Positions 3,289 through 28,551 of a DNA stretch of 64,000 bases are shown piece by piece. The DNA comes from Enterococcus phage 9181. Each line of letters opens with the position of its first letter. Within the stretch, counting starts at the first letter, position 1. Where the stretch lies: the sequence record MT939240.1. One strand, 5' to 3'. The position numbers and the translations under genes are program-made. The notes under the pieces were generated by a model. That model had not been told where the DNA came from, searched no databases, and saw nothing but the letters and a program-made list of their open reading frames with translations.

Positions 3289-4158
3289 ATGGCTAGAGGT
3301 TTAGAAGCTATCAAAGCAGCACAAGCAAGTGACGGAAAAAAGGTATCATCAATTCGTACTTATCTTAAGAAAGGCGAAAGCTTGTTAGTACGCATTCCAG
3401 AAACAGTCCTTGACACAATTAATGTAAAACAAGTAGTAAGCGTATGGGAACCACGCATTTTACCAACACTAGCTTATAAAGCTAACGGCATCACTGACAA
3501 ACGTGACTTGTTCGACGAAGCTTTAGAACTAATGAAAGCAGATCACTTCAAAGCAATCGCTAACGGAGAGATTGTAAAAGGTTCTGAGGAAGACAAGAAA
3601 TCATATCGCAACTCTTTGATTTTACAACCTAAACCAACATACTTGTTTAGTGTTATTCCTTTGGTAGACTTTACTCAAGGTAAGGCAACATTCCCAGCAG
3701 GCACACCAATCATTTTAGAAACAAACAATGGTAAGAACGGAGCCAACATTGAAGCTCTTATTTCTACTTTACAAAACTTAGAGCGAAAATTCAATACAAA
3801 AGCATTCACAATTACGGCAACGGGTTCTAATACCTTCTCAATCACTCCAGAAGACTTAGATGATGACCGAGCGGTAAGCAAAGAAGCTTTGAAAGTTTTT
3901 GAAGCAACTAAATCTTTAGAAACTTTACCAGAAGAACTTAAGGAGTTTTACACTCACGAATATGGTAAGTTAGCCGTTAAACAAGAATTGTTCGACAATG
4001 CTCTATTTGAAGCTAACGAAGAAAACCAACTAGGTAAACTTAAAGAAATTGGGTTCGACGTTACTCGCCTAGAAGGAATCAACGAACCATCAGAAGAAGA
4101 TGTTGCTGAGGCATTCGGAACATCTGACGAAGACCTTGAAAATGAGCTACCATTCTAA
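3289..4158 (+). CDS. Putative ssDNA-binding protein-like protein (289 aa) with an acidic C-terminal tail ending ...DEDLENELPF
   Basis: RBS GGAGG 9 nt upstream. It is the first gene after a strong promoter. The C-terminal acidic tail with a terminal F resembles the SSB DDDIPF / T7 gp2.5 tails. The rest of the sequence is not recognised. Confidence 0.4.
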   Translation: MARGLEAIKAAQASDGKKVSSIRTYLKKGESLLVRIPETVLDTINVKQVVSVWEPRILPTLAYKANGITDKRDLFDEALELMKADHFKAIANGEIVKGSEEDKKSYRNSLILQPKPTYLFSVIPLVDFTQGKATFPAGTPIILETNNGKNGANIEALISTLQNLERKFNTKAFTITATGSNTFSITPEDLDDDRAVSKEALKVFEATKSLETLPEELKEFYTHEYGKLAVKQELFDNALFEANEENQLGKLKEIGFDVTRLEGINEPSEEDVAEAFGTSDEDLENELPF

Positions 4159-4190
4159 CGAATGGGGCTCTTCCCTTTAGGAGGAATACA

Positions 4191-4730
4191 ATGGAATTAG
4201 AAAAACAACCACCTATTGAAATGGATTTAGAAAAGACTTACGTCGTAATGAATCCCAAGCAATGGTTAGACATTGGTAACGCACTTATGGTAGCAAGCAA
4301 TCAATTGGAGTTTGCCGAGCAAGTATATACAGGCGACCCAATGGTTAAGTCACAAATGGTATTGGCAATCTACTCAGCAATTGGCGTTCTGAACAAGGTT
4401 CACTCCCGTTCGAAAGACTTTATGGACGACTCAGAAGTATCTGCTGACACCATGTTAGAATCCATTCATGACCAACTGGTTGACATGGCTGCCCAAGTTT
4501 ACCCACTGCTTAACGAAGAAGACAAACAAGCTTTGGTAGAGGATAAGAAGAAACTTTCCCAAGCGCTTAACAAAGAGTTCTCGAACCGAGTGTATAGTCG
4601 TTTATCAGACGATGACCAAGTTGTTGAGAAATTCGATAACGAAGAGGAATTGCATGGAATGGTTGACGCAACCTACTCCAATCATTTAGATGGAATGGTT
4701 GATGAAGCTTTCGGGGAGGTCACTAAATGA
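4191..4730 (+). CDS. Hypothetical protein (179 aa)
   Basis: RBS AGGAGG. Confidence 0.6.
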   Translation: MELEKQPPIEMDLEKTYVVMNPKQWLDIGNALMVASNQLEFAEQVYTGDPMVKSQMVLAIYSAIGVLNKVHSRSKDFMDDSEVSADTMLESIHDQLVDMAAQVYPLLNEEDKQALVEDKKKLSQALNKEFSNRVYSRLSDDDQVVEKFDNEEELHGMVDATYSNHLDGMVDEAFGEVTK

Positions 4731-5146
4731 AGTCTGATCCAATAAAGTCAGTCATTAAAATCTACCGTGACGATACCTACAACAAAGAGTTTAGCTTAGA
4801 GTTCTTCAAAGAGGACTTGGACTATGACAATTCAGATGGTGCTGATACACATTTGTGGACACCTACAACGTTCATGCTAGGTGTTGGAGAGTCTCTGAAA
4901 GTCCTTTGTGATGAAGCTATGATGATCTTATTAAATGACCCACCTGAATTACCAAGCGTTTTAAACATAGATGTTGAGTTCCTTTTGCAAGGAATGGATT
5001 TACAAGCACATACAGTATTCGCTTCAAACGCCGTTATTAAAACTAGTGTAGAAGCTCAGTCAGAGCGCCTACTAACACAACTTGTTCCCCAAATTACGGA
5101 ACATCTTAAGAAGTACATTAACCCTCAGCCAGAAATGAGTGAGTGA
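4727..5146 (+). CDS. Hypothetical protein (139 aa)
   Basis: ATGA start/stop overlap with the upstream gene. Confidence 0.6.
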   Translation: MKSDPIKSVIKIYRDDTYNKEFSLEFFKEDLDYDNSDGADTHLWTPTTFMLGVGESLKVLCDEAMMILLNDPPELPSVLNIDVEFLLQGMDLQAHTVFASNAVIKTSVEAQSERLLTQLVPQITEHLKKYINPQPEMSE

Positions 5147-5348
5147 TATGGACTATTCTAAATGGTATGTGGGAGACAAGGTGTTCTACCAAGGTCAAAC
5201 CTGTGCCAACACCGTTAAATACGGGGAAGAGTATGAAGTGGTTAGGTTGGTATCAGGAAAGCCTCACCATGCTTTCATCCTTGATGACTTAGGGAATGAG
5301 AAGCTTATCCAAATGAGTTCACTATTTGTTAAGGTAGGTGGTAAGTAG
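5139..5348 (+). CDS. Small protein with a KxGDxV SH3/KOW-like motif (69 aa)
   Basis: Overlapping start. The motif YVGDKVFYQGQ recurs in several other proteins in the window. Confidence 0.5.
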   Translation: MSDMDYSKWYVGDKVFYQGQTCANTVKYGEEYEVVRLVSGKPHHAFILDDLGNEKLIQMSSLFVKVGGK

Positions 5349-5391
5349 TGATTTACAAAAGCTATTTATTAGAAAAGTTTGATTATAACGC

Positions 5392-5420
5392 TTGACAAAT
5401 GATCCATAATATGGTATAGT
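5392..5420 (+). promoter_or_regulatory. Sigma-A promoter TTGACA-17-TGGTATAGT driving the non-coding/tRNA unit
   Basis: TTGACA at 5392-5397 and TGG followed by TATAGT at 5412-5420. Confidence 0.55.
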
Positions 5421-6050
5421 ATTATTATTGATAAATAAGATGACATTTTGAGTCACATGCAAGGTAGCTGCGGGCACAGTTATCTTGCTTCTCTTAGGGG
5501 AGTGGCGTGAGGCATACGCACCGTGGAAGACACGGGGAAGTCAATAATTCATGAATAAACCTTCCATTATCTCTGGTTCGAATCCAGTCTTCCCTATAAC
5601 CTACAAAAGTAGGTCAATTAATTGGCGGTGGTTGCACGCCCCTTGATGATCGTTCGCTCAGTAACACGGTTGTCATTAACTCAATTAAGATGTTAAGCCT
5701 GAGCCATCTAACGAGAGTGACTGGTTGCATACGCCATGGACAAATGCGATCGAGGTTCCGTGCTAGTGCCTTAAGGGTAGCTCCCATAGCACCTTACATA
5801 TTTCCGTGACAAAGAGTTGTAAGAAGTGTATTCCTCTTTGGTTCGACTAGTCTTTACTAGCTCGTACGAGTTCGCAAGAAACTTAGGCAGACGTGCCCTT
5901 CCCACAAGTCAGCCGGTCAGGTGGGTTGCAGCGGATGTTCTCGTTGAAGCTGTCGTAAAGTGGACACCCTTGACCACTATAAATAAAGTTGCATAGGGGC
6001 GGAGACGTGGTAGTTAACCCTTGGGCATAAGCTTCTCTGCTCAAGTAAAT

Positions 6051-6121
6051 AGGTGAGTAGTGTAATGGTATCACAACGGACTCCAAATCCGTTAATGAGG
6101 GTTCGACTCCTTCCTTGCCTG
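6051..6121 (+). tRNA. tRNA-Trp (anticodon CCA)
   Basis: Hand-folded. The acceptor AGGTGAG/CTTGCCT forms 7 bp with 2 GU pairs. The anticodon arm is ACGGA-CTCCAAA-TCCGT. The T arm is GAGGG-TTCGACT-CCTTC. The D arm is GTGT..AATGG. No CCA is encoded. Confidence 0.6.
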
Positions 6122-6125
6122 TTAT

Positions 6126-6197
6126 AGCCACGTGGTGTAATGGAAAGCACAACAGACTTCTAATCTGTTAGTGGAGGTTCAAATCCTTCCGTGGCTG
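6126..6197 (+). tRNA. tRNA-Arg (anticodon UCU)
   Basis: Hand-folded. The acceptor AGCCACG/CGTGGCT is a perfect 7 bp. The D stem is GTGT/GCAC. The anticodon arm is ACAGA-CTTCTAA-TCTGT. The T arm is GGAGG-TTCAAAT-CCTTC. Confidence 0.65.
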
Positions 6198-6679
6198 TTG
6201 GAATGGCGATGGGTAACATGGACTGTCCGCCACCCAAGATGTGCTGCTTTCATACATCTAAAAGATGAGCCCTCGGTGCAGGTCGTTGAAAAAGCTTAGT
6301 ACTTTGTCTTCTATATGGGGACTTGGTAAGATGAGCCCTGACATTGGCTATCTCGTCATAGCCCTTGTAACCACGCCACGATTCTTTCGACAAAATACAT
6401 GGATTTCCGTGGTGGTGTGGGATTTGTTAGTTGGCAAGCAACTTTAAAACTTGATATTAGAGCGAGACTTAATGGCTCGTCAGTCAGATAAGACAGAAAC
6501 ATCAGTGGTTGGAGCTTTTACACTTAAAACAAAAAGATGGATAAGTTAGGCGTTACTTGTGAAGTGTTGCTAGAAGTTGATCGCTCTGGTGGGAGGTGCA
6601 AGTCCTCTCACGCCTATTGGGCAAACGCCCATTACCACATAAGGTTGAAATTCCTTGCATTTTTCATTCCTCCCTTTTG

Positions 6680-6975: not shown

Positions 6976-7929
6976 ATGATCGAGAATTACAACCTTGGTA
7001 ACGGTATTGTCATTCAGATTGATATAGCCGAATATTTACAACGTTTCGAATGGGAGAATGCACGGTGGAAAGAGGATCGCTTAATAGCCTCCTCTCCATT
7101 CCGTAATGATGGTTCTCCCTCATTTTATGTAAACTTCAACAATGATTGGAGCGGTACAGCAGGTGATTCAGGAACTGGACAGACATGGAATTTAGTAGGA
7201 CTTACAGCAGAGCTTTATGGGATCACTTATGAAGAGGCGTTCGAACAGCTTCGGGACGAGTTCTTTGTCAAACCTTACGAAGTTCCAGACATTTCCATTA
7301 AACTTAGAACACCTGAGGTTGCGTCATCCTTTGACTTGCCTCCCGTGAAGTTTTCAGGATACCTAAACGACCGAGGCATTACACTAGAGACTCAGAAAGC
7401 CTATCGAATATCAGAAGGAGACGGAGCCATTAACTTGCCATACATAGATGGAAGCGGAGTTGTAAGAGCCATTAAGCATCGTAAGATAGCTGAGAAAGAT
7501 TTCTGGTATGAGTCTGGAACACATTCTATTAATGATCTACTTTTCGGATACCATTTAATATATGAGCAGAAACCTTCTACACTGTGGATATGCGAGGCTG
7601 AGATAGATGCCATGTCAGCTCATGAAATGGGCTATATTGGGGTGTCCACAGGTTCCGCACACATATCTGAACGTCAGATAGAACTCATCTGTAAGACGGG
7701 CGTTTCCAATATTGTGGTTGCAACCGATAACGACCTAGCTGGGAATAAGGCGTCTGGGGAGATTGTAGAACTCCTTAAGGATAAGGATCAATTCAACCTT
7801 TACAGAGCATTGCTACCTCTTGGCAAAGACCTTAACGAATACTTAATGAAGTATCCCTCAAAAGTAAAAGTAAAGAAGTTAAGTAGTGTGGGTAGCCTTC
7901 GCAAAAAGATATGGTTCAAGGCTGTTTAA
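6976..7929 (+). CDS. DNA primase, DnaG-like TOPRIM domain protein (317 aa)
   Basis: TOPRIM motifs: CEAEID (Glu) and VATDNDLAGN (DxD). Confidence 0.7.
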   Translation: MIENYNLGNGIVIQIDIAEYLQRFEWENARWKEDRLIASSPFRNDGSPSFYVNFNNDWSGTAGDSGTGQTWNLVGLTAELYGITYEEAFEQLRDEFFVKPYEVPDISIKLRTPEVASSFDLPPVKFSGYLNDRGITLETQKAYRISEGDGAINLPYIDGSGVVRAIKHRKIAEKDFWYESGTHSINDLLFGYHLIYEQKPSTLWICEAEIDAMSAHEMGYIGVSTGSAHISERQIELICKTGVSNIVVATDNDLAGNKASGEIVELLKDKDQFNLYRALLPLGKDLNEYLMKYPSKVKVKKLSSVGSLRKKIWFKAV

Positions 7930-7989
7930 GCTTGACAAAAACCCTTTCTTATGATAACATAAAAAGGTAATTAAAAAAGGAGGAAATAT

Positions 7990-8268
7990 ATGATTGGTCA
8001 CTATGTTAAGGTAATGTTAAAGAACGTCTCCAAGTTATTCTGGGGGTTCGTAGTACTAGGAGCAGCCGTTGAGCTAACTGTCGAAAAAGGGTATCTACAT
8101 TTAATGGGAGTTGTATCCATAGCTTGTATTATTGGATTGATTGGGCAATTCATCTATGTGTGCTTCCAGTACAACAAATTAAAGAAGCTTATGGTAAAAG
8201 AATTAAACGTTACACCTGAACGTGCTAAAGAGATTCTAAAAGAAGCTTACAAGGAGGAAGAAGATTAA
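7990..8268 (+). CDS. Small membrane protein (92 aa, 2 TM)
   Basis: RBS AAGGAGG. Two hydrophobic helices. Confidence 0.6.
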   Translation: MIGHYVKVMLKNVSKLFWGFVVLGAAVELTVEKGYLHLMGVVSIACIIGLIGQFIYVCFQYNKLKKLMVKELNVTPERAKEILKEAYKEEED

Positions 8269-9251
8269 TGCCATTTTTCAAATACCCTTCACTAACAAAT
8301 GAGTATGCAGTTGCCAAGTCCCGATCAATCCTGTCAAAGATGAATACCATCGCTTACTCAACAGAAAAGATTCATGGATCAAATGTTCAATATGTGTTTG
8401 ACGACCGTGATGATGTAGTTAACTTTGGAGCCTTCTCACGTAATGGTAAAAAGGTGGGAGGTAAGGACGACAATGGCGAACACATCGTGGACACTCAGTT
8501 TAAGTTAGTAATGGATATTGCCTTTCAGATGGACTTACCAAACATTGCAAGTTCCATCTTTACAGAGTTTAATCATGTGGATAGTATCAACATTTATGGA
8601 GAGTATTTTGGAAGTGGCGTTCAGAGAACACAGTATTTTATTAATGAACGTAATGAGCGTGGTTTCCAAGTATTTGACATCTTCTTGCATTACAAAGGAG
8701 ACCCTCAGGAAGTCTATCGTTCAATGGGGCTATTAGAACTAATTGACTTTGTAGGTCGTGACAAAATGGTTCCAATTGAGGACATTGTCTTCCTTTCAAA
8801 CCTTATTGAAAAGGATATTGTTGAACGATCCCATTATGGAGGGGAACGTGAAGGTAACGTCTATAAGGAAATACATGGTTCTTGGATTGACCCTGTTACC
8901 AAGTATTGTGGCATTAAGCATAAACGACCTGAGTTCCTAGAAGTTTCCAAAGCACCTAAGCAGCCTAAAGCTAAACTATCTGACGAGTTCTTAGAAGTTG
9001 TGGAAAGACTTTCTACTTACGTTACAGAGAACCGTGTCCGCAACATCCATTCACATGGTGACATTAAGTTTATCACAAAGAACATCGGAGCTATCATGCT
9101 TGAAGTTAAGAAAGACATCCTTAAGGAGTTTGAGGATAATGAAGAATCAATTCCTAATGTAGACCTAAGCAAAGCTATTAGAGCGTGTGACCGAGACATT
9201 GCCTTGGCTGTTAGGAAAGTCATTGCAGAGGTCGGAGACATGGAGGACTAA
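8268..9251 (+). CDS. ATP-dependent RNA ligase, Rnl2 family (327 aa)
   Basis: Nucleotidyltransferase motif I EKIHGSN, motif III-like IYGEYFG and motif V EGNVYKE all match Rnl2 (T4 Rnl2 motif I is KIHGTN). Confidence 0.65.
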   Translation: MPFFKYPSLTNEYAVAKSRSILSKMNTIAYSTEKIHGSNVQYVFDDRDDVVNFGAFSRNGKKVGGKDDNGEHIVDTQFKLVMDIAFQMDLPNIASSIFTEFNHVDSINIYGEYFGSGVQRTQYFINERNERGFQVFDIFLHYKGDPQEVYRSMGLLELIDFVGRDKMVPIEDIVFLSNLIEKDIVERSHYGGEREGNVYKEIHGSWIDPVTKYCGIKHKRPEFLEVSKAPKQPKAKLSDEFLEVVERLSTYVTENRVRNIHSHGDIKFITKNIGAIMLEVKKDILKEFEDNEESIPNVDLSKAIRACDRDIALAVRKVIAEVGDMED

Positions 9252-9252
9252 T

Positions 9253-9459
9253 ATGGAAATAAAAGCTTCTGTTAAAGACGTAGCATCGTGGGTTAAGAAA
9301 GAGGATGTTGAAGAGCTTGTAAAAGCCTTCGGTCTACTTGACCAACAAGAAGAAGAGAATATCTGTGAGTATTGTGGGCTTGAACACTTAGATCAATGGG
9401 AAGCTATGGACTGCTACAACTTCCATAACGACCCAGAATATGACCCTTGGGATATTTAG
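9253..9459 (+). CDS. Small Cys-containing acidic protein (68 aa)
   Basis: AGGA RBS upstream of ATG 9253. Contains CEYCG...C. Confidence 0.45.
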   Translation: MEIKASVKDVASWVKKEDVEELVKAFGLLDQQEEENICEYCGLEHLDQWEAMDCYNFHNDPEYDPWDI

Positions 9460-9468
9460 GAGGACTAA

Positions 9469-9618
9469 ATGAAATACGAATGTGAGATATCTCCCAGCTA
9501 CGAAAGCCTTACAAGGTTTATGAATTTTTACGACATTGCACCAGAACAAATTATCACTATTGGGTACGACCATAATAACGACTCGGTTAGCATGATTTAT
9601 ATTAAGGATGGGAGATAA
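9469..9618 (+). CDS. Small hypothetical protein (49 aa)
   Basis: RBS TAGGAGG. Confidence 0.45.
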   Translation: MKYECEISPSYESLTRFMNFYDIAPEQIITIGYDHNNDSVSMIYIKDGR

Positions 9619-9621
9619 GCT

Positions 9622-9786
9622 AGTGGAAAACATTTTATTAATTAGTATCGATGTTAAAACAGGCAAGGCACAGGGAGTGTGGAACGGAGAAGGCGAGACT
9701 TACGATTCTGTAGAAGAAACAAAAGAGCTGTTACAGACGCTTATTGAAGAGTTACCGTTAAAGGATAAGGAGGAGTTGTTCGAATA
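9622..9786 (+). CDS. Small hypothetical protein (54 aa, GTG start)
   Basis: GGGAGA RBS precedes the GTG. The ORF fills the gap before the HNH gene. Confidence 0.3.
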
Positions 9787-10323
9787 ATGCAAGAACGTTG
9801 GTGCGGAGTTTTAGGGTTGGAAAAATACTATGAAGTTTCCGACCGTGGGAGAATACGAACGGTCACTAGAAGAGACTCTCGTGGTCAGTTACGCCCCTCT
9901 AAATTTCTTAAGCCTTCTGGGAGATACTTGGCAACTACTTGTAGTATAGATGGAGGAAAACATTTCAGACTGTATGTACACAAAGAAGTATTGAGAGCCT
10001 TTTGCGGAGAAAGACCTGATGGAATGTTCATCAACCACATCAACGGTAATAAACATGATAACCGATTGGATAACCTTGAATATGTTACTCCTAAAGAGAA
10101 TAATGAACATGCTATGAGGAATGGTTTGACTAGTAAAAATTCCGTCGTAAAGATAACTCAACTAGATACAGGAATAATTTCACACCACCTATCAAAGAGA
10201 AAGGCATCCAAGTTTCTCAAAAAATACCCGTCCTATATAGCTGAAATATCCAGAGGATTGTACAAAAACACTAATCTAATAATAGAGGAGATACCATATG
10301 ACAATACACTGCGTTATATATAG
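9787..10323 (+). CDS. HNH homing endonuclease with N-terminal NUMOD4 motif (178 aa)
   Basis: NUMOD4 motif YEVSDRGRIRT, and HNH motif HINGNKHDNRLDNLEYVT. Confidence 0.8.
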   Translation: MQERWCGVLGLEKYYEVSDRGRIRTVTRRDSRGQLRPSKFLKPSGRYLATTCSIDGGKHFRLYVHKEVLRAFCGERPDGMFINHINGNKHDNRLDNLEYVTPKENNEHAMRNGLTSKNSVVKITQLDTGIISHHLSKRKASKFLKKYPSYIAEISRGLYKNTNLIIEEIPYDNTLRYI

Positions 10324-18895: not shown

Positions 18896-19243
18896 TTGAT
18901 TGAACAGTGGAGATACCTATATTACCAAGGGGTACTTTCAGATACATACGAAGTAAGTTCCTTTGGCAATATACGAAACGCCAAGAGCAAGAAGCTATTA
19001 AAACCACAGTACACCGGCTATGCCCACGTACGCATCAACCACAACGGACGAGTTCAAAACATACGACTTCATCGAGCAGTTGCTTCAACCTTTCTTCGAA
19101 AACTTGACACCGACAGCGTAGTAAACCACATTAACAATGATAAAACAGATAACCGTGTATGCAACTTAGAATGGATTTCCCAAGCCATGAACGTTCGCAA
19201 CTCACTAATGACTAGGGGGATTTTAAATGAAGAAGCCATCTAA
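18896..19243 (+). CDS. HNH endonuclease (115 aa, TTG start)
   Basis: AGGAGG RBS. Motifs YEVSSFGNIRN and HINNDKTDNRVCNLEW. Confidence 0.7.
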   Translation: MIEQWRYLYYQGVLSDTYEVSSFGNIRNAKSKKLLKPQYTGYAHVRINHNGRVQNIRLHRAVASTFLRKLDTDSVVNHINNDKTDNRVCNLEWISQAMNVRNSLMTRGILNEEAI

Positions 19244-20608: not shown

Positions 20609-21168
20609 GATATTTAGGACTTGATGTGAGCTCGGTTGCCACGGGTGTTGCGGTGGTGGACAGAGCCCCTGATGGCTCCCTTACCAAGGTAGTAACAGAC
20701 GTCATCACAACTTCCTCTAAGCAAGAGATTGGCAAGCGCCTAGTGCTCTTTGCAGAAACACTTCAAGGATTCTTCGATGAATATCAACCAGATTATGTGA
20801 TCCGTGAGGAAACCATTAACAACCGTGCTTCTAACGCCATCTTATTTAAGTTCTTAGGAGTGGCTCAATTCCTAGCATGCAACAATGGTCATCAAAAGAC
20901 TTACGAGTATTATCCTACAACTATCAAGAAGGAAGTCACAGGCGCTGGCAGAGCTTCTAAGGAGACTGTTGCCAAGTGTGCACAACAATACTTTAGAGAA
21001 GACTTATCGGAGCTCACAGACGACGAGACGGACGCTATTGCATCTATCTTAACACACCTTTCCAAAACATCCATCATAACAACTGTAGAAGATTATGACA
21101 ACCTACAGGAACACGACTCAGAACAACAACAACTTGTAGAGGGGTACGAGAATGGGACTATCCAATAG
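20602..21168 (+). CDS. RuvC-like Holliday junction resolvase (188 aa)
   Basis: N-terminal YLGLDVSSVATGVAVVD is typical of RuvC/YqgF folds. Confidence 0.65.
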   Translation: MVRYLGLDVSSVATGVAVVDRAPDGSLTKVVTDVITTSSKQEIGKRLVLFAETLQGFFDEYQPDYVIREETINNRASNAILFKFLGVAQFLACNNGHQKTYEYYPTTIKKEVTGAGRASKETVAKCAQQYFREDLSELTDDETDAIASILTHLSKTSIITTVEDYDNLQEHDSEQQQLVEGYENGTIQ

Positions 21169-21742
21169 CAAACAGATACGAATTGCAATTTCTGGAAAAA
21201 GCCGTTCAGGGAAAGATACTTTGGCTGATGCTATCAAGGCAGAATTTAAGCGTCAGGGAAAGACAGTTATCCCATTAGCTTTTGCAGATGGCATTAAAGA
21301 AATATATAAACAGAACTTCCGATATGTTAAAACCGACTGCAAACCTCGTGAAGCCTATATTACCATTGGAGAAGCCTTCCGTGCAGTAGATGAAAACGTG
21401 TGGGTTGAACGCCTTAAAGGACGTGTCGAAGAGAGCTACCAATGGGATGTAGTCATCGTGACAGACCTTCGCAGAAAGAACGAAGAGGAATACCTAAAGG
21501 ATGCTGGATTCACAACCATCTTAGTAGATTCCTCAGATGAGATTAGAATCGCCCGTGCCAAGGCTTTAGGAGAGCATTTAGAGGCTTCTAATGCAGGCGA
21601 TGATGAAGTAGATTTATTAACACCTGATATAACTATCCATAATGACAACGACGTTCGAGACTGGTCAGCACCTGCTCAAAGAATCGTAGAACAAATCAGA
21701 GAGGTGGCTACCATTAATGGATACCAACGAACAAAGAATTAA
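21152..21742 (+). CDS. Deoxynucleoside monophosphate kinase (T4 gp1-like P-loop kinase, 196 aa)
   Basis: P-loop ISGKSRSGKDTLAD resembles T4 dNMP kinase GVKRSGKDT. Confidence 0.6.
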   Translation: MGLSNSKQIRIAISGKSRSGKDTLADAIKAEFKRQGKTVIPLAFADGIKEIYKQNFRYVKTDCKPREAYITIGEAFRAVDENVWVERLKGRVEESYQWDVVIVTDLRRKNEEEYLKDAGFTTILVDSSDEIRIARAKALGEHLEASNAGDDEVDLLTPDITIHNDNDVRDWSAPAQRIVEQIREVATINGYQRTKN

Positions 21743-22448
21743 ACCAAGCAAGATTAAAGGAAATAGCCAGAACCGTGTATTAAAGGATGGAAGCGAGATT
21801 CGATATGACCTCCCCCTTTACCGCCAGATCACAGAGGCAGCTAATACACGACTTTTCTCAAAGGCTGTACAATACTTAATCGAAAGCAAACTTTATAAAG
21901 TCTTCCTACCACGGGAAGTACGAGAAGAGTTTGTAAATGACATAACCGAAATCTATTACCGCAAGTTTGGATACTTGTCAGTGATGGATGACGCCTTGAC
22001 CAATTCCTTAGCCGAATACTTCTTACATAACGACGTTAAAGTAATGCCTGACTACACCGTTAAACGACCTGATTGTAACTTCTTTGAATATCCTTTCGAG
22101 GGACATCGAATGAGACTTCGTAATCACATGTCTCCATACCGCTTCGAAGTTCCTGTGGATACAGACTTCAACGAAATGCTCTTCAACGAAAACCTATTTT
22201 CAGATTCAACCCCAGAAGACGACTTAACACGAGTCGATGAGACCCTTGACATTACACAAGCATTTGAATTAGCTGACTTAACAAAGTTAGAGCAAGACAT
22301 CGTATGGCTTAACTCAGTGGTTGGAATGAGCCTCAGAGATATTGCTGACCTAAGCGATGAGTTTCCTAGTAAATCAGCCCTTTCATATAAGCTTAAGGAA
22401 GCTAAAGACAAGCTCAGAAAAGCTGTTGAAAAACACCAACTAAAATAA
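21717..22448 (+). CDS. Phage sigma factor (sigma-70 family, region 4 HTH at C-terminus; 243 aa)
   Basis: The C-terminal LEQDIVWLNSVVGMSLRDIADL...LSYKLKEAKDKLRKA matches the sigma region 4.2 pattern. Confidence 0.5.
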   Translation: MDTNEQRIKPSKIKGNSQNRVLKDGSEIRYDLPLYRQITEAANTRLFSKAVQYLIESKLYKVFLPREVREEFVNDITEIYYRKFGYLSVMDDALTNSLAEYFLHNDVKVMPDYTVKRPDCNFFEYPFEGHRMRLRNHMSPYRFEVPVDTDFNEMLFNENLFSDSTPEDDLTRVDETLDITQAFELADLTKLEQDIVWLNSVVGMSLRDIADLSDEFPSKSALSYKLKEAKDKLRKAVEKHQLK

Positions 22449-22455
22449 TCTAAAA

Positions 22456-22490
22456 ATCCCTTGACAAGTTCAGGGGGTTTTTGCTATACT
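22456..22490 (+). promoter_or_regulatory. Terminator hairpin with embedded promoter (CCC-TTGACAAGTTCA-GGGGG, then T-run, then TATACT)
   Basis: Same architecture as the element at 14352. Confidence 0.45.
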
Positions 22491-22518: not shown

Positions 22519-22734
22519 ATGTACCTTGTATTTTATAAATACGGAGAAGATTTGAAACCCCACTTTTTAGGAGCTTACAACTCCTACACAGAAGCACGTA
22601 ATAGTGCAATAGTTTCCGCTTCTTTTAAAACAGATACTGCCACGTTTAAAATTATTTCAGTAGTGATTGACTTAGACTCTGAGGACAGTCCATGGAAAGA
22701 CAAGAAAGAACTTGTGTGGGAGGGGCGTGATTAA
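22519..22734 (+). CDS. Hypothetical protein (71 aa)
   Basis: RBS GAGGAGG. Confidence 0.5.
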   Translation: MYLVFYKYGEDLKPHFLGAYNSYTEARNSAIVSASFKTDTATFKIISVVIDLDSEDSPWKDKKELVWEGRD

Positions 22735-22961
22735 TGGGTATTCTTAAAGAGTTCATAGCTGCGTTCGTAGAAACATTCCTAGAAGCATTAATTGGTTGTG
22801 TATTCGCCATAGCAATAACCGCACTACTCATTGGATACTTCTGGCTTATGTTATCAGTAGCTAAAAGCTTTTCATGGTTCACTACAGTAATTGTGTGTTC
22901 ATTTTTAACAAGTGTTTTAGTAGCCATCCTCGGAGCACTAGTAGAAATATTTGGATATTAA
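22734..22961 (+). CDS. Small membrane protein (75 aa)
   Basis: Two hydrophobic helices. Overlapping start. Confidence 0.5.
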   Translation: MGILKEFIAAFVETFLEALIGCVFAIAITALLIGYFWLMLSVAKSFSWFTTVIVCSFLTSVLVAILGALVEIFGY

Positions 22962-22979
22962 AGCGGAAAGGATTTGATT

Positions 22980-23780
22980 ATGATTTTAACATTGGCAGGC
23001 GTAATCGGAGTTGGTAAATCTTCGATGACACAATTATTAGCGGACTTATTAGACACCGAGGCGGTGTATGAGCCCGTTGATAACAATCCATTTTTAAAGA
23101 AATTCTATGAGGACAAAAGTAAATACGGGTTCTTATTCCAGATAGACATGCTATCTAAAAGGTTTGAAATGATTCAGACAGCCATGAGCGTTAACAATGG
23201 CATCTTGGATCGTTCCGTGTACGAGGATAGCATCTTCTTAGATCAACTCTATCAAGAAGGTCAAGTAACAGACCTTGAACAAGAGGTTTACCACAACCTA
23301 TTAAACCGCATGCTGAAAGAATTGGAGCCACTTCCTAAGAAGTCTCCAGACTTAATGATTGTTCTTAACTGCACGTTTGATGAAGAAATTAGACGTATCA
23401 ATTCACGAGCTAGAGAGTTTGAAAAGGTGGAAGAAGGCACTGAGCTATATGAGTACTTCAAACTCCATCACGAGAACTATCAGAAGTGGATTGAGAAAGA
23501 CTTGAACTTCCCCAAAATAGTCTTGGACGTCACTAATAAAGATTTTGTAAATAACCCCAAACACCAACTAGAATTGTTGACAACTATCTTGGTAAAGCTT
23601 AACGAAGTAGGTGCATTGACAACTTTAGACACGGTACGTAAACTATGTGAGATCAATTCAGTACCTTGGGACAAAGACAATGCCCAAGCTTATGCCATGT
23701 ACTTGTACAACAAACACGAAGGCAAGATGCCTTTCCACGAGCTTAGCCAATTCACTGACAACACTTCATTATATGAATAA
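22980..23780 (+). CDS. Deoxynucleoside kinase (dCK/dGK family, 266 aa)
   Basis: P-loop LAGVIGVGKSS, YEPV motif, and the dNK signature FYEDKSKYGFLFQ. Confidence 0.7.
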   Translation: MILTLAGVIGVGKSSMTQLLADLLDTEAVYEPVDNNPFLKKFYEDKSKYGFLFQIDMLSKRFEMIQTAMSVNNGILDRSVYEDSIFLDQLYQEGQVTDLEQEVYHNLLNRMLKELEPLPKKSPDLMIVLNCTFDEEIRRINSRAREFEKVEEGTELYEYFKLHHENYQKWIEKDLNFPKIVLDVTNKDFVNNPKHQLELLTTILVKLNEVGALTTLDTVRKLCEINSVPWDKDNAQAYAMYLYNKHEGKMPFHELSQFTDNTSLYE

Positions 23781-23836
23781 GCGCCATTTAACAGCGCATA
23801 TGCAACATTAAAATTATTGGAAGAAGGTATTTAATT

Positions 23837-24568
23837 TTGGAAAACATTACTAAACTGTTCACTATCAACTACTACAAAAAAGGTCTATCAGGGTGGTCGA
23901 AATCCTCCTACACATTATTAACGATTGGCTTAATTATCCAAGCATTTATCGGATTCGCTTTACCACTTGTTCAAGGTCAGCCAATCACTCTCACAGGAGT
24001 TACCGCCACTATTGCAGGGATGATAGGGTTCACTTGTACACTTGCTATTACTAACGAGCGCTCCATTAATGGTATCCTAGGGTTTATCTCAGCACTTCTT
24101 TTAATTGGTGTTGCCACAACTACAGGAAACTATTCAGACATTATTATGCAAGGTGCATACATTATTCTATTAGACATTCCAATTATCTTCTCCAAGCGTT
24201 GGAACAATGGATTAGAACCACGTAAGATGAATGTTAAGAACATGTTCGGAACAGTCGCTTTAATGATCTTATTCTTCATCGGACTTTATCTACTTGATAC
24301 AGTTATCCTACACTCCCCACAAGCTTTACTAGATGCTTCAAGCGCTATGATCGGTTTAGTCGGAGCCGTCTTATGTGTTCGAGGATTCCGTGCTCAATAC
24401 TACTTCTGGACTTTTCAAGGTCTTATGTCAGTAGCGTTATGGATTCAAACAGCAATGAATGGTCACGCCGTTTGGGTTCTTATGGTAACTTACATGTTGT
24501 ACCTAGGAAACGACTTGGTTGCATTCTTAGACTCAGGTTGGTTCAAAAAGAATAAAGCAAAAGCTTAA
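23837..24568 (+). CDS. PnuC-family (Pnu) nucleoside/nicotinamide-riboside transporter (243 aa, TTG start)
   Basis: Seven to eight predicted TM helices. The C-terminal LYLGNDLVAFLDSGW resembles the PnuC conserved ND...W segment. Confidence 0.5.
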   Translation: MENITKLFTINYYKKGLSGWSKSSYTLLTIGLIIQAFIGFALPLVQGQPITLTGVTATIAGMIGFTCTLAITNERSINGILGFISALLLIGVATTTGNYSDIIMQGAYIILLDIPIIFSKRWNNGLEPRKMNVKNMFGTVALMILFFIGLYLLDTVILHSPQALLDASSAMIGLVGAVLCVRGFRAQYYFWTFQGLMSVALWIQTAMNGHAVWVLMVTYMLYLGNDLVAFLDSGWFKKNKAKA

Positions 24569-24574
24569 TAACAG

Positions 24575-24600
24575 AGGCTTGGGAATTATCCCAAGTCTTT
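24575..24600 (+). terminator. Rho-independent terminator
   Basis: CTTGGG-AATTAT-CCCAAG followed by TCTTTTT. Confidence 0.6.
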
Positions 24601-24612
24601 TTAAATTTGTGC

Positions 24613-24648
24613 TTGACAGTTTTACTGTGGGCGTGGTATATTATATAC
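24613..24648 (+). promoter_or_regulatory. Sigma-A promoter TTGACA-18-TGGTATATT
   Basis: TTGACA at 24613-24618. Confidence 0.5.
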
Positions 24649-27958: not shown

Positions 27959-28551
27959 CTTGAAGGACTTTATCAAAGCGGACAACATTAAGCTTAGTCG
28001 AGAAGAAGTCAAAGAGTTTTTGCAAAGCTTTCTTGACATTAAGGAAGGCGAAGAATGGGCACAGGTAGAGGACTTTCCCTAAATACTTTGTGAGCACCTT
28101 TGGCAGAGTGCTTTCCTTGAAGACTAGCAATGTTAAATTTATTGGCACGAAGCCTAATCATACGTTTGGGTATACGGGTATTACACTAATTAGTGCTAAT
28201 AGTAAAAGGAGAACCACCTTGCACAGAATCGTGGCAGAAACTTTTATCCCAAAGCCACCAGAGTGGAGAGAAGATTGGCATGTAAATCACATCTCAGGAG
28301 ACCCTACTAATAATTCAGTTACCAACTTAGAGTGGTGCACTGCAAGTGAAAATTATTTACATCCTAACTGTAACCGTAAACGCTCTAAAAAAGTTCGTCG
28401 GATAAGCATTGAAGACGGATCGACAGAAATTTTTCTCAATGCCTCTGTAGCGGCTAGATCAGTTGGTGGTAGGGCTTCAGAGGTTTGGCGAAAGTGTAAT
28501 AAAGCCTCTAAAAAATTAGATTATATGAATTATTTTTGGGAGTGGGCTTAG
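27948..28551 (+). pseudogene. HNH/NUMOD4 homing endonuclease interrupted by a +1 frame change at CCC-TAA (28077-28082). Either a programmed +1 frameshift or a pseudogene.
   Basis: The frame-3 ORF 27948-28082 ends ...GEEWAQVEDFP*. The frame-1 ORF from 28069 continues KYFVSTFGRVLSL...NHISGDPTNNSVTNLEW. Together these give a contiguous NUMOD4 motif (EEW..V..FP.Y.VS..GRV) followed by the HNH motif. Confidence 0.5.

Follow-up and report, generated by a model that had tools for sequence, protein, structure and literature searches.

A deoxynucleoside kinase and a Pnu-family transporter share an operon in Enterococcus phage 9181 and probably form a deoxynucleoside salvage cassette

A stretch of 64,000 nucleotides of Enterococcus phage 9181 (MT939240.1; hereafter the window) was analyzed around positions 22980–24568, where a gene encoding a deoxynucleoside kinase (dNK) is followed, at a spacing of 57 nt, by a gene encoding a membrane transporter of the Pnu family. 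Both open reading frames (ORFs) are real and lie on the + strand at the coordinates given in an initial annotation of this DNA, and they are the last two genes of a four-gene operon. The window represents most of an Enterococcus phage genome of about 70 kb from an Enterococcus hirae phage lineage. Its first 25 kb show 92% identity over 91–95% of their length to the E. hirae phages EH802P1, EH802P2, EH93P1 and EH93P2, and no other close DNA relatives of these 25 kb were found; a transporter 99% identical to that of the window is encoded on a 69.6-kb metagenomic contig. The operon comprises the following features:

22452–22482, + strand: hairpin with flanking A-run and U-run (−14.5 kcal/mol, z −3.54; 1 of 200 shuffles equally good)
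22461–22490, + strand: sigma-70-type operon promoter, TTGACA-18-TATACT with an upstream TG (TG-n-TATACT; 11 of 12 positions, extended −10), a consensus match only
22519–22734, + strand: small ORF of 71 amino acids (aa), first gene of the operon; no Pfam or PHROG match
22734–22961, + strand: small hydrophobic ORF of 75 aa, from its sequence probably a membrane protein; no Pfam or PHROG family match
22980–23780, + strand: dNK of 266 aa, predicted to be of the deoxyadenosine/deoxyguanosine/deoxycytidine (dA/dG/dC) type; PF01712 (dNK) at 132.8 bits (cut-off 27; E 1.7e-38)
23607–23777, + strand: helical C-terminal tail of the kinase, residues ca. 210–266
23837–24568, + strand: Pnu-family facilitator of 243 aa with a TTG start, predicted deoxynucleoside carrier; PF04973, 81.6 bits against a cut-off of 27.3
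24573–24600, + strand: intrinsic terminator ending the operon (12-bp stem, 4-nt loop, T-run; −16.9 kcal/mol, z −4.17; 0 of 200 shuffles equally good)

These borders agree with the initial annotation, which had placed the two genes between a terminator/promoter element and a downstream terminator. The upstream hairpin overlaps the −35 box of the operon promoter and is probably the terminator of the preceding unit. In the region from 20.5 to 26.5 kb the operon promoter shares the top score with the next one, at 24613–24642, which directly follows the terminator.

The kinase, whose start is ATG 22980 with an in-frame TTG at 22974, had been described as a dNK. Consistent with this, the thymidylate-kinase models remained below their cut-offs (PF02223, 25 versus 27; TIGR00041, 26 versus 83). 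Its best sequence matches in the PDB were the deoxyadenosine kinases (dAK) of Giardia (8PUU, E 1e-22) and M. mycoides (2JAQ), and sequence and profile searches of the PDB returned only structures of dNK or of deoxycytidine (dCK), deoxyguanosine (dGK) or deoxyadenosine kinases, including human dCK and dGK and Drosophila dNK, together with the dNK-like NDUFA10. An AlphaFold2 model of the kinase (pLDDT 90.8) gave the same picture, with the top 50 Foldseek hits all being dAK, dCK or dGK at target TM-scores of up to 0.86. Alignment with phage, bacterial and reference kinases identified G12-K13, E31, Y43, Q54, R61, D77-R78-S79, D83, R143, R145 and E148 as invariant, and R139 as at least 90% conserved. 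The hallmarks of dNKs are thus all present: the P-loop, the catalytic Glu (E-P-V), the base-binding Gln, the D/E-R-S motif and the Arg-rich lid. The roles of these residues in dCK and dNK are known from established structural work, and profile alignment matched the phage residues to E53, Y86, Q97, R104, E127-R128-S129, D133 and the lid arginines of dCK. Because R61 and D83 correspond to R104 and D133, the pair altered in the dCK variant whose crystal structure with thymidine is PDB 3QEO (from its title), the enzyme is predicted to be of the dA/dG/dC type and not a thymidine kinase; on these sequence grounds dA, dG and dC are its most likely substrates. Compared with known dAK, dGK and dCK enzymes (2JAQ, 8PUU, human dCK and dGK), the phage kinase shares the core fold, keeps every catalytic and substrate residue and adds a helical C-terminal tail of about 55 residues.

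The second protein, initially taken for a Pnu protein with seven or eight transmembrane (TM) helices, passed the PF04973 threshold and also matched TIGR01528 (63.7 versus 42.45) and phrog_1880 (E 8e-61). Its AlphaFold2 model (pLDDT 91.8) contains eight TM helices, namely one N-terminal helix plus the seven-helix Pnu core, and its sole significant PDB match is PnuC 4QTN (TM-score 0.76–0.80). Since both family assignments exceed curated thresholds, the family-level doubts attached to the initial annotation fall away. The transporter belongs to a clade of phage and Lactobacillaceae proteins at least 40% identical among themselves, which stands apart from the carriers of nicotinamide riboside (NR). 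BLASTP local alignments to E. coli PnuC, N. mucosa PnuC and a phage carrier of the NARP3 type showed only about 19–24% identity, that to E. coli PnuC not being significant (E 0.3–0.65), whereas the same three NR-type carriers are 26–35% identical to one another. The transporter therefore does not cluster with NR carriers, even though its TIGR01528 score passes. NARP3 is described in a 2026 Sci Adv paper (PMC13464706) as a phage PnuC-like NR transporter plus a NadR-like RNK/NMNAT, working on the basis of facilitated diffusion and kinase trapping.

The ligand-binding motif differs in the same sense. Pnu carriers have a motif WxxW(x)3D/N in TM6, the D/N residue of which contacts NR in PnuC and, when mutated, abolishes thiamine binding in PnuT (PMC5749112). 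W-x-x-W-x-x-x-N was invariant in five NR-type or NadR-linked carriers, to which hhalign (98.8% probability) aligned Y188-Y-F-W191-T-F-Q194-G195 of the phage transporter. Across the 25 clade members Y188, W191 and G195 do not vary and Q194 hardly does, so that only the second Trp of the motif is kept throughout the clade; the gate and pore residues are conserved across 25 diverse homologues. Relative to PnuC (N. mucosa 4QTN, E. coli, H. influenzae) and S. woodyi PnuT, the transporter shares the 1+7 TM architecture, the second Trp of TM6 and Tyr/Trp at the proposed gate positions, but has Tyr in place of the first Trp, Gly in place of Asn/Asp and a conserved Gln before this Gly, at about 20% identity. 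A Pnu fold combined with a changed ligand-site motif is the pattern expected for a changed substrate. The NR-contact residues quoted for NARP3 (Q124, Q196, N214, Y242) were also considered, but mapping them required an assumed 25-residue offset, and one of them (Q171 in SEQRES numbering) is not conserved among NR carriers. The comparison therefore rests on the published WxxWxxxD/N motif only.

A dNK gene was found directly beside this type of Pnu gene in at least six phage lineages, with the following gene orders:

E. hirae phages: dNK, Pnu; in EH802P1 an HNH endonuclease gene is inserted between the two
Schiekvirus: NrdD, (endonuclease), dNK, Pnu, NrdH
Denvervirus 9183: LOG-like, nucleoside 2-deoxyribosyltransferase, dNK, Pnu, NrdH
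Lactococcus phage KSY1: dNK, Pnu
Metagenomic contigs L024 and L025: dNK, Pnu
L132, a DnaE/gyrase phage: dNK, Pnu
L131, a relative of the window phage: reversed order, Pnu, dNK, then thymidylate synthase

In IMG/VR loci, dNK was the most frequent family among the proteins flanking this Pnu type (10 of 133). The identities of kinase and transporter to the window proteins were 65/72.5%, 48/42% and 42/42% by lineage, and in L024, where the ranking of the two values is reversed, 74/56%; they fall together in most lineages, as expected if the pair travels as one unit.

Two further observations were made on loci with this Pnu type. In EH802P1 (94% identical), 536 nt (5227–5762) replace the 59 nt at 23762–23820 of the window, which comprise the last codons of the kinase and the spacer. 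The insert carries a gene for an HNH endonuclease resembling I-HmuI, which sits precisely between the kinase and transporter genes, and the difference has the look of an insertion polymorphism due to a homing endonuclease; other HNH genes are present in the window at 9787–10323 and 28090–28551, and a related one was called in the near-identical contig L005 at the position matching 18896–19243. Separately, two IMG/VR contigs of 129 and 81 kb (L027 and L028) carry at 3830–6428 a gene for a PnrA/Bmp-type nucleoside-binding lipoprotein followed by two tandem Pnu paralogues, one 43% and the other 30–31% identical to the window transporter.

The strongest argument on the substrate comes from Schiekvirus genomes, which contain two Pnu/kinase pairs. 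In EFDG1 (NC_029009) the dNK-Pnu pair (4154–5735 on the analyzed locus) lies between NrdD and NrdH, and a second pair, consisting of a NadR-like gene and a Pnu gene, lies 3 kb downstream (7769–9641). The NadR-like enzyme contains PF01467 and PF13521 and matches E. coli NadR with an E value of 1e-102, and the Pnu gene directly after it (PF04973) encodes a protein with no BLASTP similarity to the window transporter. The two EFDG1 transporters are designated gp152 and AVV19_p18. The NadR-like gene was found, at 97% identity or above, in 27 Enterococcus phage records, all of about 145–157 kb like EFDG1; the dNK-Pnu pair coexists with the separate NadR-Pnu pair in these Schiekvirus records, among which there was no E. 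hirae phage. That each kinase has its own transporter within a single genome argues that the dNK-linked carrier is not the NR carrier. The NadR-then-PnuC order is the same in Salmonella phage rokbiter, which has the NARP3-type arrangement. In Vibrio phages 70E37.6 and ICP1 an ORF of about 330–350 aa lies directly upstream of PnuC, and from annotation only it is cytidyltransferase-related in the former and hypothetical in the latter. The Schiekvirus pair of NadR-like enzyme and divergent Pnu looks like a Gram-positive counterpart of NARP3, a system whose distribution is given in the available part of PMC13464706 as mainly Salmonella and Escherichia phages, with no mention there of Schiekvirus. 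Matches to AAA_28 near phage Pnu genes had suggested an NR kinase beside the Lactobacillus phage copies, but they proved to be the Schiekvirus NadR-like gene with its own Pnu partner.

Bacterial relatives of the transporter provided a regulatory link. Among the best 80 of 115 relatives, 79 loci were kept (78 from Lactobacillaceae and one from Alloscardovia), none of these best 80 being from an Enterococcus genome; relatives are also present in bee-gut Lactobacillus species. A search with the NrdR-box consensus acaCwAtATaTwGtg and the tandem rule of PMC4009431 gave 36 matches in 29 kb upstream of bacterial members versus 9 in 791 kb of background, an enrichment of about 100-fold. Tandem boxes about 30 nt apart were present upstream in 19 of the 79 loci, versus no pairs in 787 kb of background. 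These tandem-box loci are mostly from Companilactobacillus and hence not independent; single boxes were also found in Latilactobacillus and Lacticaseibacillus. The boxes tie the clade to PnuN, the "NrdR-regulated PnuC-like deoxyribonucleoside transporter" predicted by Rodionov and Gelfand in 2005, as cited in PMC7749635, a name that persists as a SEED/RAST annotation string. The transporter is accordingly a predicted carrier of the NrdR-linked/dNK-linked clade called PnuN. The two marks of this group are distributed unequally: NrdR boxes were found only with bacterial clade members, and co-localisation with dNK in the six or more phage lineages and in two bacterial genomes. Two sets of bacterial neighbours were discarded as functional partners: AhpC and an alpha/beta-hydrolase reflect genus-level synteny in Companilactobacillus with no pathway signal, and QueT and a secreted nuclease, which neighbour the closest bacterial homologue, do not recur.

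The kinase tail correlates with the presence of a transporter gene. In the model it forms three helices (215–225, 232–245 and 252–265; pLDDT 90–97), and it carries a conserved motif, [FY]H-x-[LV]-[SA] ... D. None of the reference kinases has this three-helix tail, nor does any cellular dNK, and it was seen only in phage dNKs encoded beside a Pnu gene. In all 12 dNK loci of IMG/VR in which the kinase alignment extends through the tail, a Pnu gene is at most 54 nt away (overlapping in KSY1); with L131 and L132, which were added by hand, the count of tail-bearing loci with an adjacent Pnu gene is 14 of 14. By ORF scan, 69 dNK loci without the tail motif had no Pnu gene within 600 nt. One of these 69, L041, has an adjacent partial Pnu gene running off the contig end and seen by tblastn only, and in two more of them a Pnu gene lies 1.6–1.8 kb away. 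The nearest tail-less kinases (70–74% identical, 231 aa) are encoded on contigs of about 43 kb with phage lysis and tail genes, where they follow a gene for glutaredoxin and no transporter accompanies them. Much of this co-occurrence is accounted for by common descent of the cassette; contact between kinase tail and transporter would be compatible with it, as a hypothesis only. Docking to the transporter and oligomerisation are guesses at the role of the tail.

Taken together, we consider that the operon encodes a two-component cassette for deoxynucleoside salvage, in which import by the Pnu protein is coupled to trapping by the kinase, with a probability of about 0.6. The analysis shows the family and fold of both proteins, the intact catalytic motifs of the kinase, the operon, the conserved linkage and the separation from NR carriers, whereas the transported substrate, the facilitated-diffusion mode (carried over from work on PnuT and PnuC) and the substrate range of the kinase are inferred. 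The initial annotation had proposed deoxynucleoside import by a dNK-linked Pnu subfamily, a proposal that gains support from the pairing in unrelated phages, the bacterial NrdR boxes, the ligand motif and the Schiekvirus pairs. Pnu genes are known to co-localise with substrate-trapping kinases, and facilitated diffusion with kinase trapping has been shown for PnuT and inferred for the Pnu family (PMC5749112). In the phage, the Pnu protein would act in the host membrane as an uncoupled facilitator through which external deoxynucleosides diffuse in. The co-expressed kinase would convert them, most likely dA, dG and dC, to deoxynucleoside monophosphates (dNMPs) at the expense of ATP. As dNMPs would be unable to pass the carrier, the inward gradient would be kept, amounting to metabolic trapping. 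A phage dNMP kinase and host nucleoside diphosphate kinase would then supply deoxynucleoside triphosphates (dNTPs) to the family-A DNA polymerase of the phage. No ribonucleotide reductase was found in the window, so the cassette would be what the phage itself adds to the supply of dNTPs. Two genes outside the operon had been named along with it in the initial annotation:

21152–21742, + strand: dNMP kinase (dNMP to dNDP), in the preceding transcription unit; phrog_139, E 4e-35; PF21448, 38.6 bits
44960–45781, − strand: ORF encoding a dUTPase; PF00692, 93.8 bits

The dNMP kinase was confirmed by these matches. The presence of a dUTPase was borne out as well, but it lies 21 kb from the cassette on the opposite strand and does not belong to the salvage module. 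The dUTPase domain spans residues 22–153 of the 273-aa ORF, leaving a C-terminal extension of about 120 residues without family match.

Several observations weigh against the salvage cassette. The transporter passes the NCBI equivalog model for NR carriers, TIGR01528, and NCBI gives the bacterial relatives the name "nicotinamide riboside transporter PnuC". In many phages of Lactobacillus and Weissella a gene of this Pnu type has no dNK within 5 kb, and bacterial members mostly stand alone, with a dNK adjacent or nearby in only 2 of the 79 loci; the closest bacterial homologues (59–65% identity) are stand-alone genes too and have neither an NrdR-box match nor a nearby dNK. Unlike bacterial members, the phage operon has no NrdR box: none was found near it, the whole window contains two distant matches versus 1.26 expected, and no tandem pair was present in any phage locus. 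The loci carrying the pair are not all independent, and a single origin followed by spread through transfer may explain them. A cytosolic dNK could also be useful without import, for instance by re-phosphorylating internally generated deoxynucleosides. Finally, literature searches found neither a paper describing a phage dNK-Pnu cassette nor a measured substrate for any PnuN member. As to the NCBI name, many of the bacterial members have tandem NrdR boxes upstream and a ligand motif unlike that of NR carriers, which makes it doubtful; on the bacterial members analyzed it is probably an over-annotation derived from the TIGR01528 model.

A carrier for some other nucleoside-like compound (ribonucleosides, a broad range of nucleosides, a base or a modified nucleoside), with the kinase acting mainly on internally generated deoxynucleosides, is a possible but doubtful alternative. 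Within the Pnu family, carriers have evolved for NR, for thiamine and for riboflavin (PMC5749112), most bacterial members lack a linked kinase, and in L027 and L028 the position of the Pnu gene after the PnrA/Bmp lipoprotein and before a second paralogue points to nucleosides in general. Set against these points, NrdR control is specific to deoxyribonucleotide supply (PMC4009431), dNK is the only recurrent enzymatic partner that was found and the top family among the phage neighbours, and the further partners are NrdD, NrdH and deoxyribosyltransferase.

It is unlikely that the transporter imports NR, from which host enzymes would make NAD+ in a NARP3-like supply or counter-defence role, and that its adjacency to the kinase reflects a general clustering of nucleotide-metabolism genes. 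Both PF04973 and the NCBI PnuC equivalog model are passed; phage PnuC-NadR pairs restored NAD+ experimentally (PMC13464706); and the authors of an L. plantarum phage genome paper (PMC6669764), the only one found that discusses this phage gene, assumed a NAD role for this gene type, a function stated there as unverified. The partners and the regulation expected of an NR carrier were not seen, however. The window contains no NR kinase, and phmmer and tblastn searches of it were negative for NadR and NMNAT, whose absence the initial annotation had remarked upon, as they were for a second Pnu, NrdD, NrdH, ThyA and nucleoside 2-deoxyribosyltransferase; no NadR-like gene occurs among the E. hirae phage records, and the Schiekvirus NadR-like gene is paired with a different Pnu directly downstream of it. 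Regulation of the bacterial relatives points to NrdR, and an Rfam scan of the window gave two tRNAs and no riboswitch; no Rfam riboswitch was found upstream of bacterial homologues in the two loci scanned (L003 and L004), NiaR sites not having been searched for. The low identity (20–23%) to validated NR carriers and the alteration of the WxxWxxxN motif invariant in the five NR-type or NadR-linked carriers argue in the same direction.

An extension of the salvage idea, which we regard as improbable, is that the cassette counters a shortage of dNTPs and is the deoxynucleotide analogue of NARP3. Host dGTPase-type triphosphohydrolase defences, or starvation, would turn dNTPs into deoxynucleosides, which the kinase would recapture and the Pnu channel would top up from outside, with the tail docking the kinase on the transporter so that import and phosphorylation are physically channelled. 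Very improbable is a functional uncoupling of the two genes, with the membrane protein perturbing the membrane, excluding superinfecting phages or doing something else unrelated to transport: the operon does encode another small hydrophobic protein, which is no direct evidence, but the high-confidence Pnu fold with its conserved gate and pore residues, the survival of the dNK linkage through gene-order inversion and the co-occurrence of the kinase tail with a transporter gene all speak against it.

The deoxynucleoside salvage cassette can be placed among known systems. It resembles PnuN in Pnu family and fold and in having bacterial relatives at about 40% identity with tandem NrdR boxes, and differs in that the phage copy lacks an NrdR box, is driven by a promoter of the phage and has a dNK gene beside it. 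Like NARP3, it is a two-gene phage cassette in which a Pnu facilitator and a substrate-trapping kinase are adjacent and co-directional. By contrast to NARP3, the kinase belongs to the dNK family and is not NadR, an NMNAT is lacking, dNMP instead of NAD+ is the predicted product, and the hosts are Lactobacillales instead of Enterobacteriaceae; the transporter, with about 20% identity to carriers of the NARP3 type, has a changed ligand motif. Both cassette types coexist in Schiekvirus genomes. The cassette is thus a version of the known design of Pnu plus trapping kinase, of which NARP3 is the NR version. The pairing already appears in GenBank/RAST labels, where some orthologues are called "deoxyadenosine/deoxyguanosine kinase" and "NrdR-regulated deoxyribonucleotide transporter, PnuC-like"; the transporter label stands on the orthologues from Schiekvirus and Denvervirus.

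Other genes of the window were also inspected. The two small ORFs at the start of the operon were considered as accessory subunits and rejected, being confined to close relatives except for one weak match: homologues of the 71-aa ORF occur in L005, a close relative, and at lower similarity (E 1.4e-8) in a single IMG/VR locus (L139), and those of the 75-aa ORF were limited to L005 and EH802P1. The ORF 21717–22448 (243 aa), which immediately precedes the operon, has a weakly sigma-70 region-4-like C-terminus (TIGR02937, E 0.003; phrog_3512, E 5e-4; phrog_14385, E 9e-22) and, going by these matches, may encode a phage sigma factor for middle or late promoters. The adjacent genes for tRNA-Trp(CCA) and tRNA-Arg(TCT) at 6050–6198 are followed 2 kb downstream by an Rnl2-type RNA ligase (8268–9251), hinting at a possible tRNA-repair theme. 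Between about 34000 and 46300, small minus-strand genes with inverted GC skew, nearly all without family match (one DUF1642), separate the plus-strand replication genes from large plus-strand ORFs at 46–64 kb that are assumed to be structural.

The phage operon offers a compact two-gene system for testing the 2005 prediction of a deoxynucleoside-specific Pnu carrier, with an NR-specific control pair available in related phages. If the prediction is true, phages that infect enterococci and lactic acid bacteria take up finished DNA precursors, besides the NAD+ precursors of NARP3, and the way in which phage replication depends on nutrients in the gut or in fermentations would be affected. The label "nicotinamide riboside transporter PnuC" is probably wrong for many genes of Lactobacillaceae and of their phages, and the same cassette is carried by the Schiekvirus phages used therapeutically against Enterococcus.

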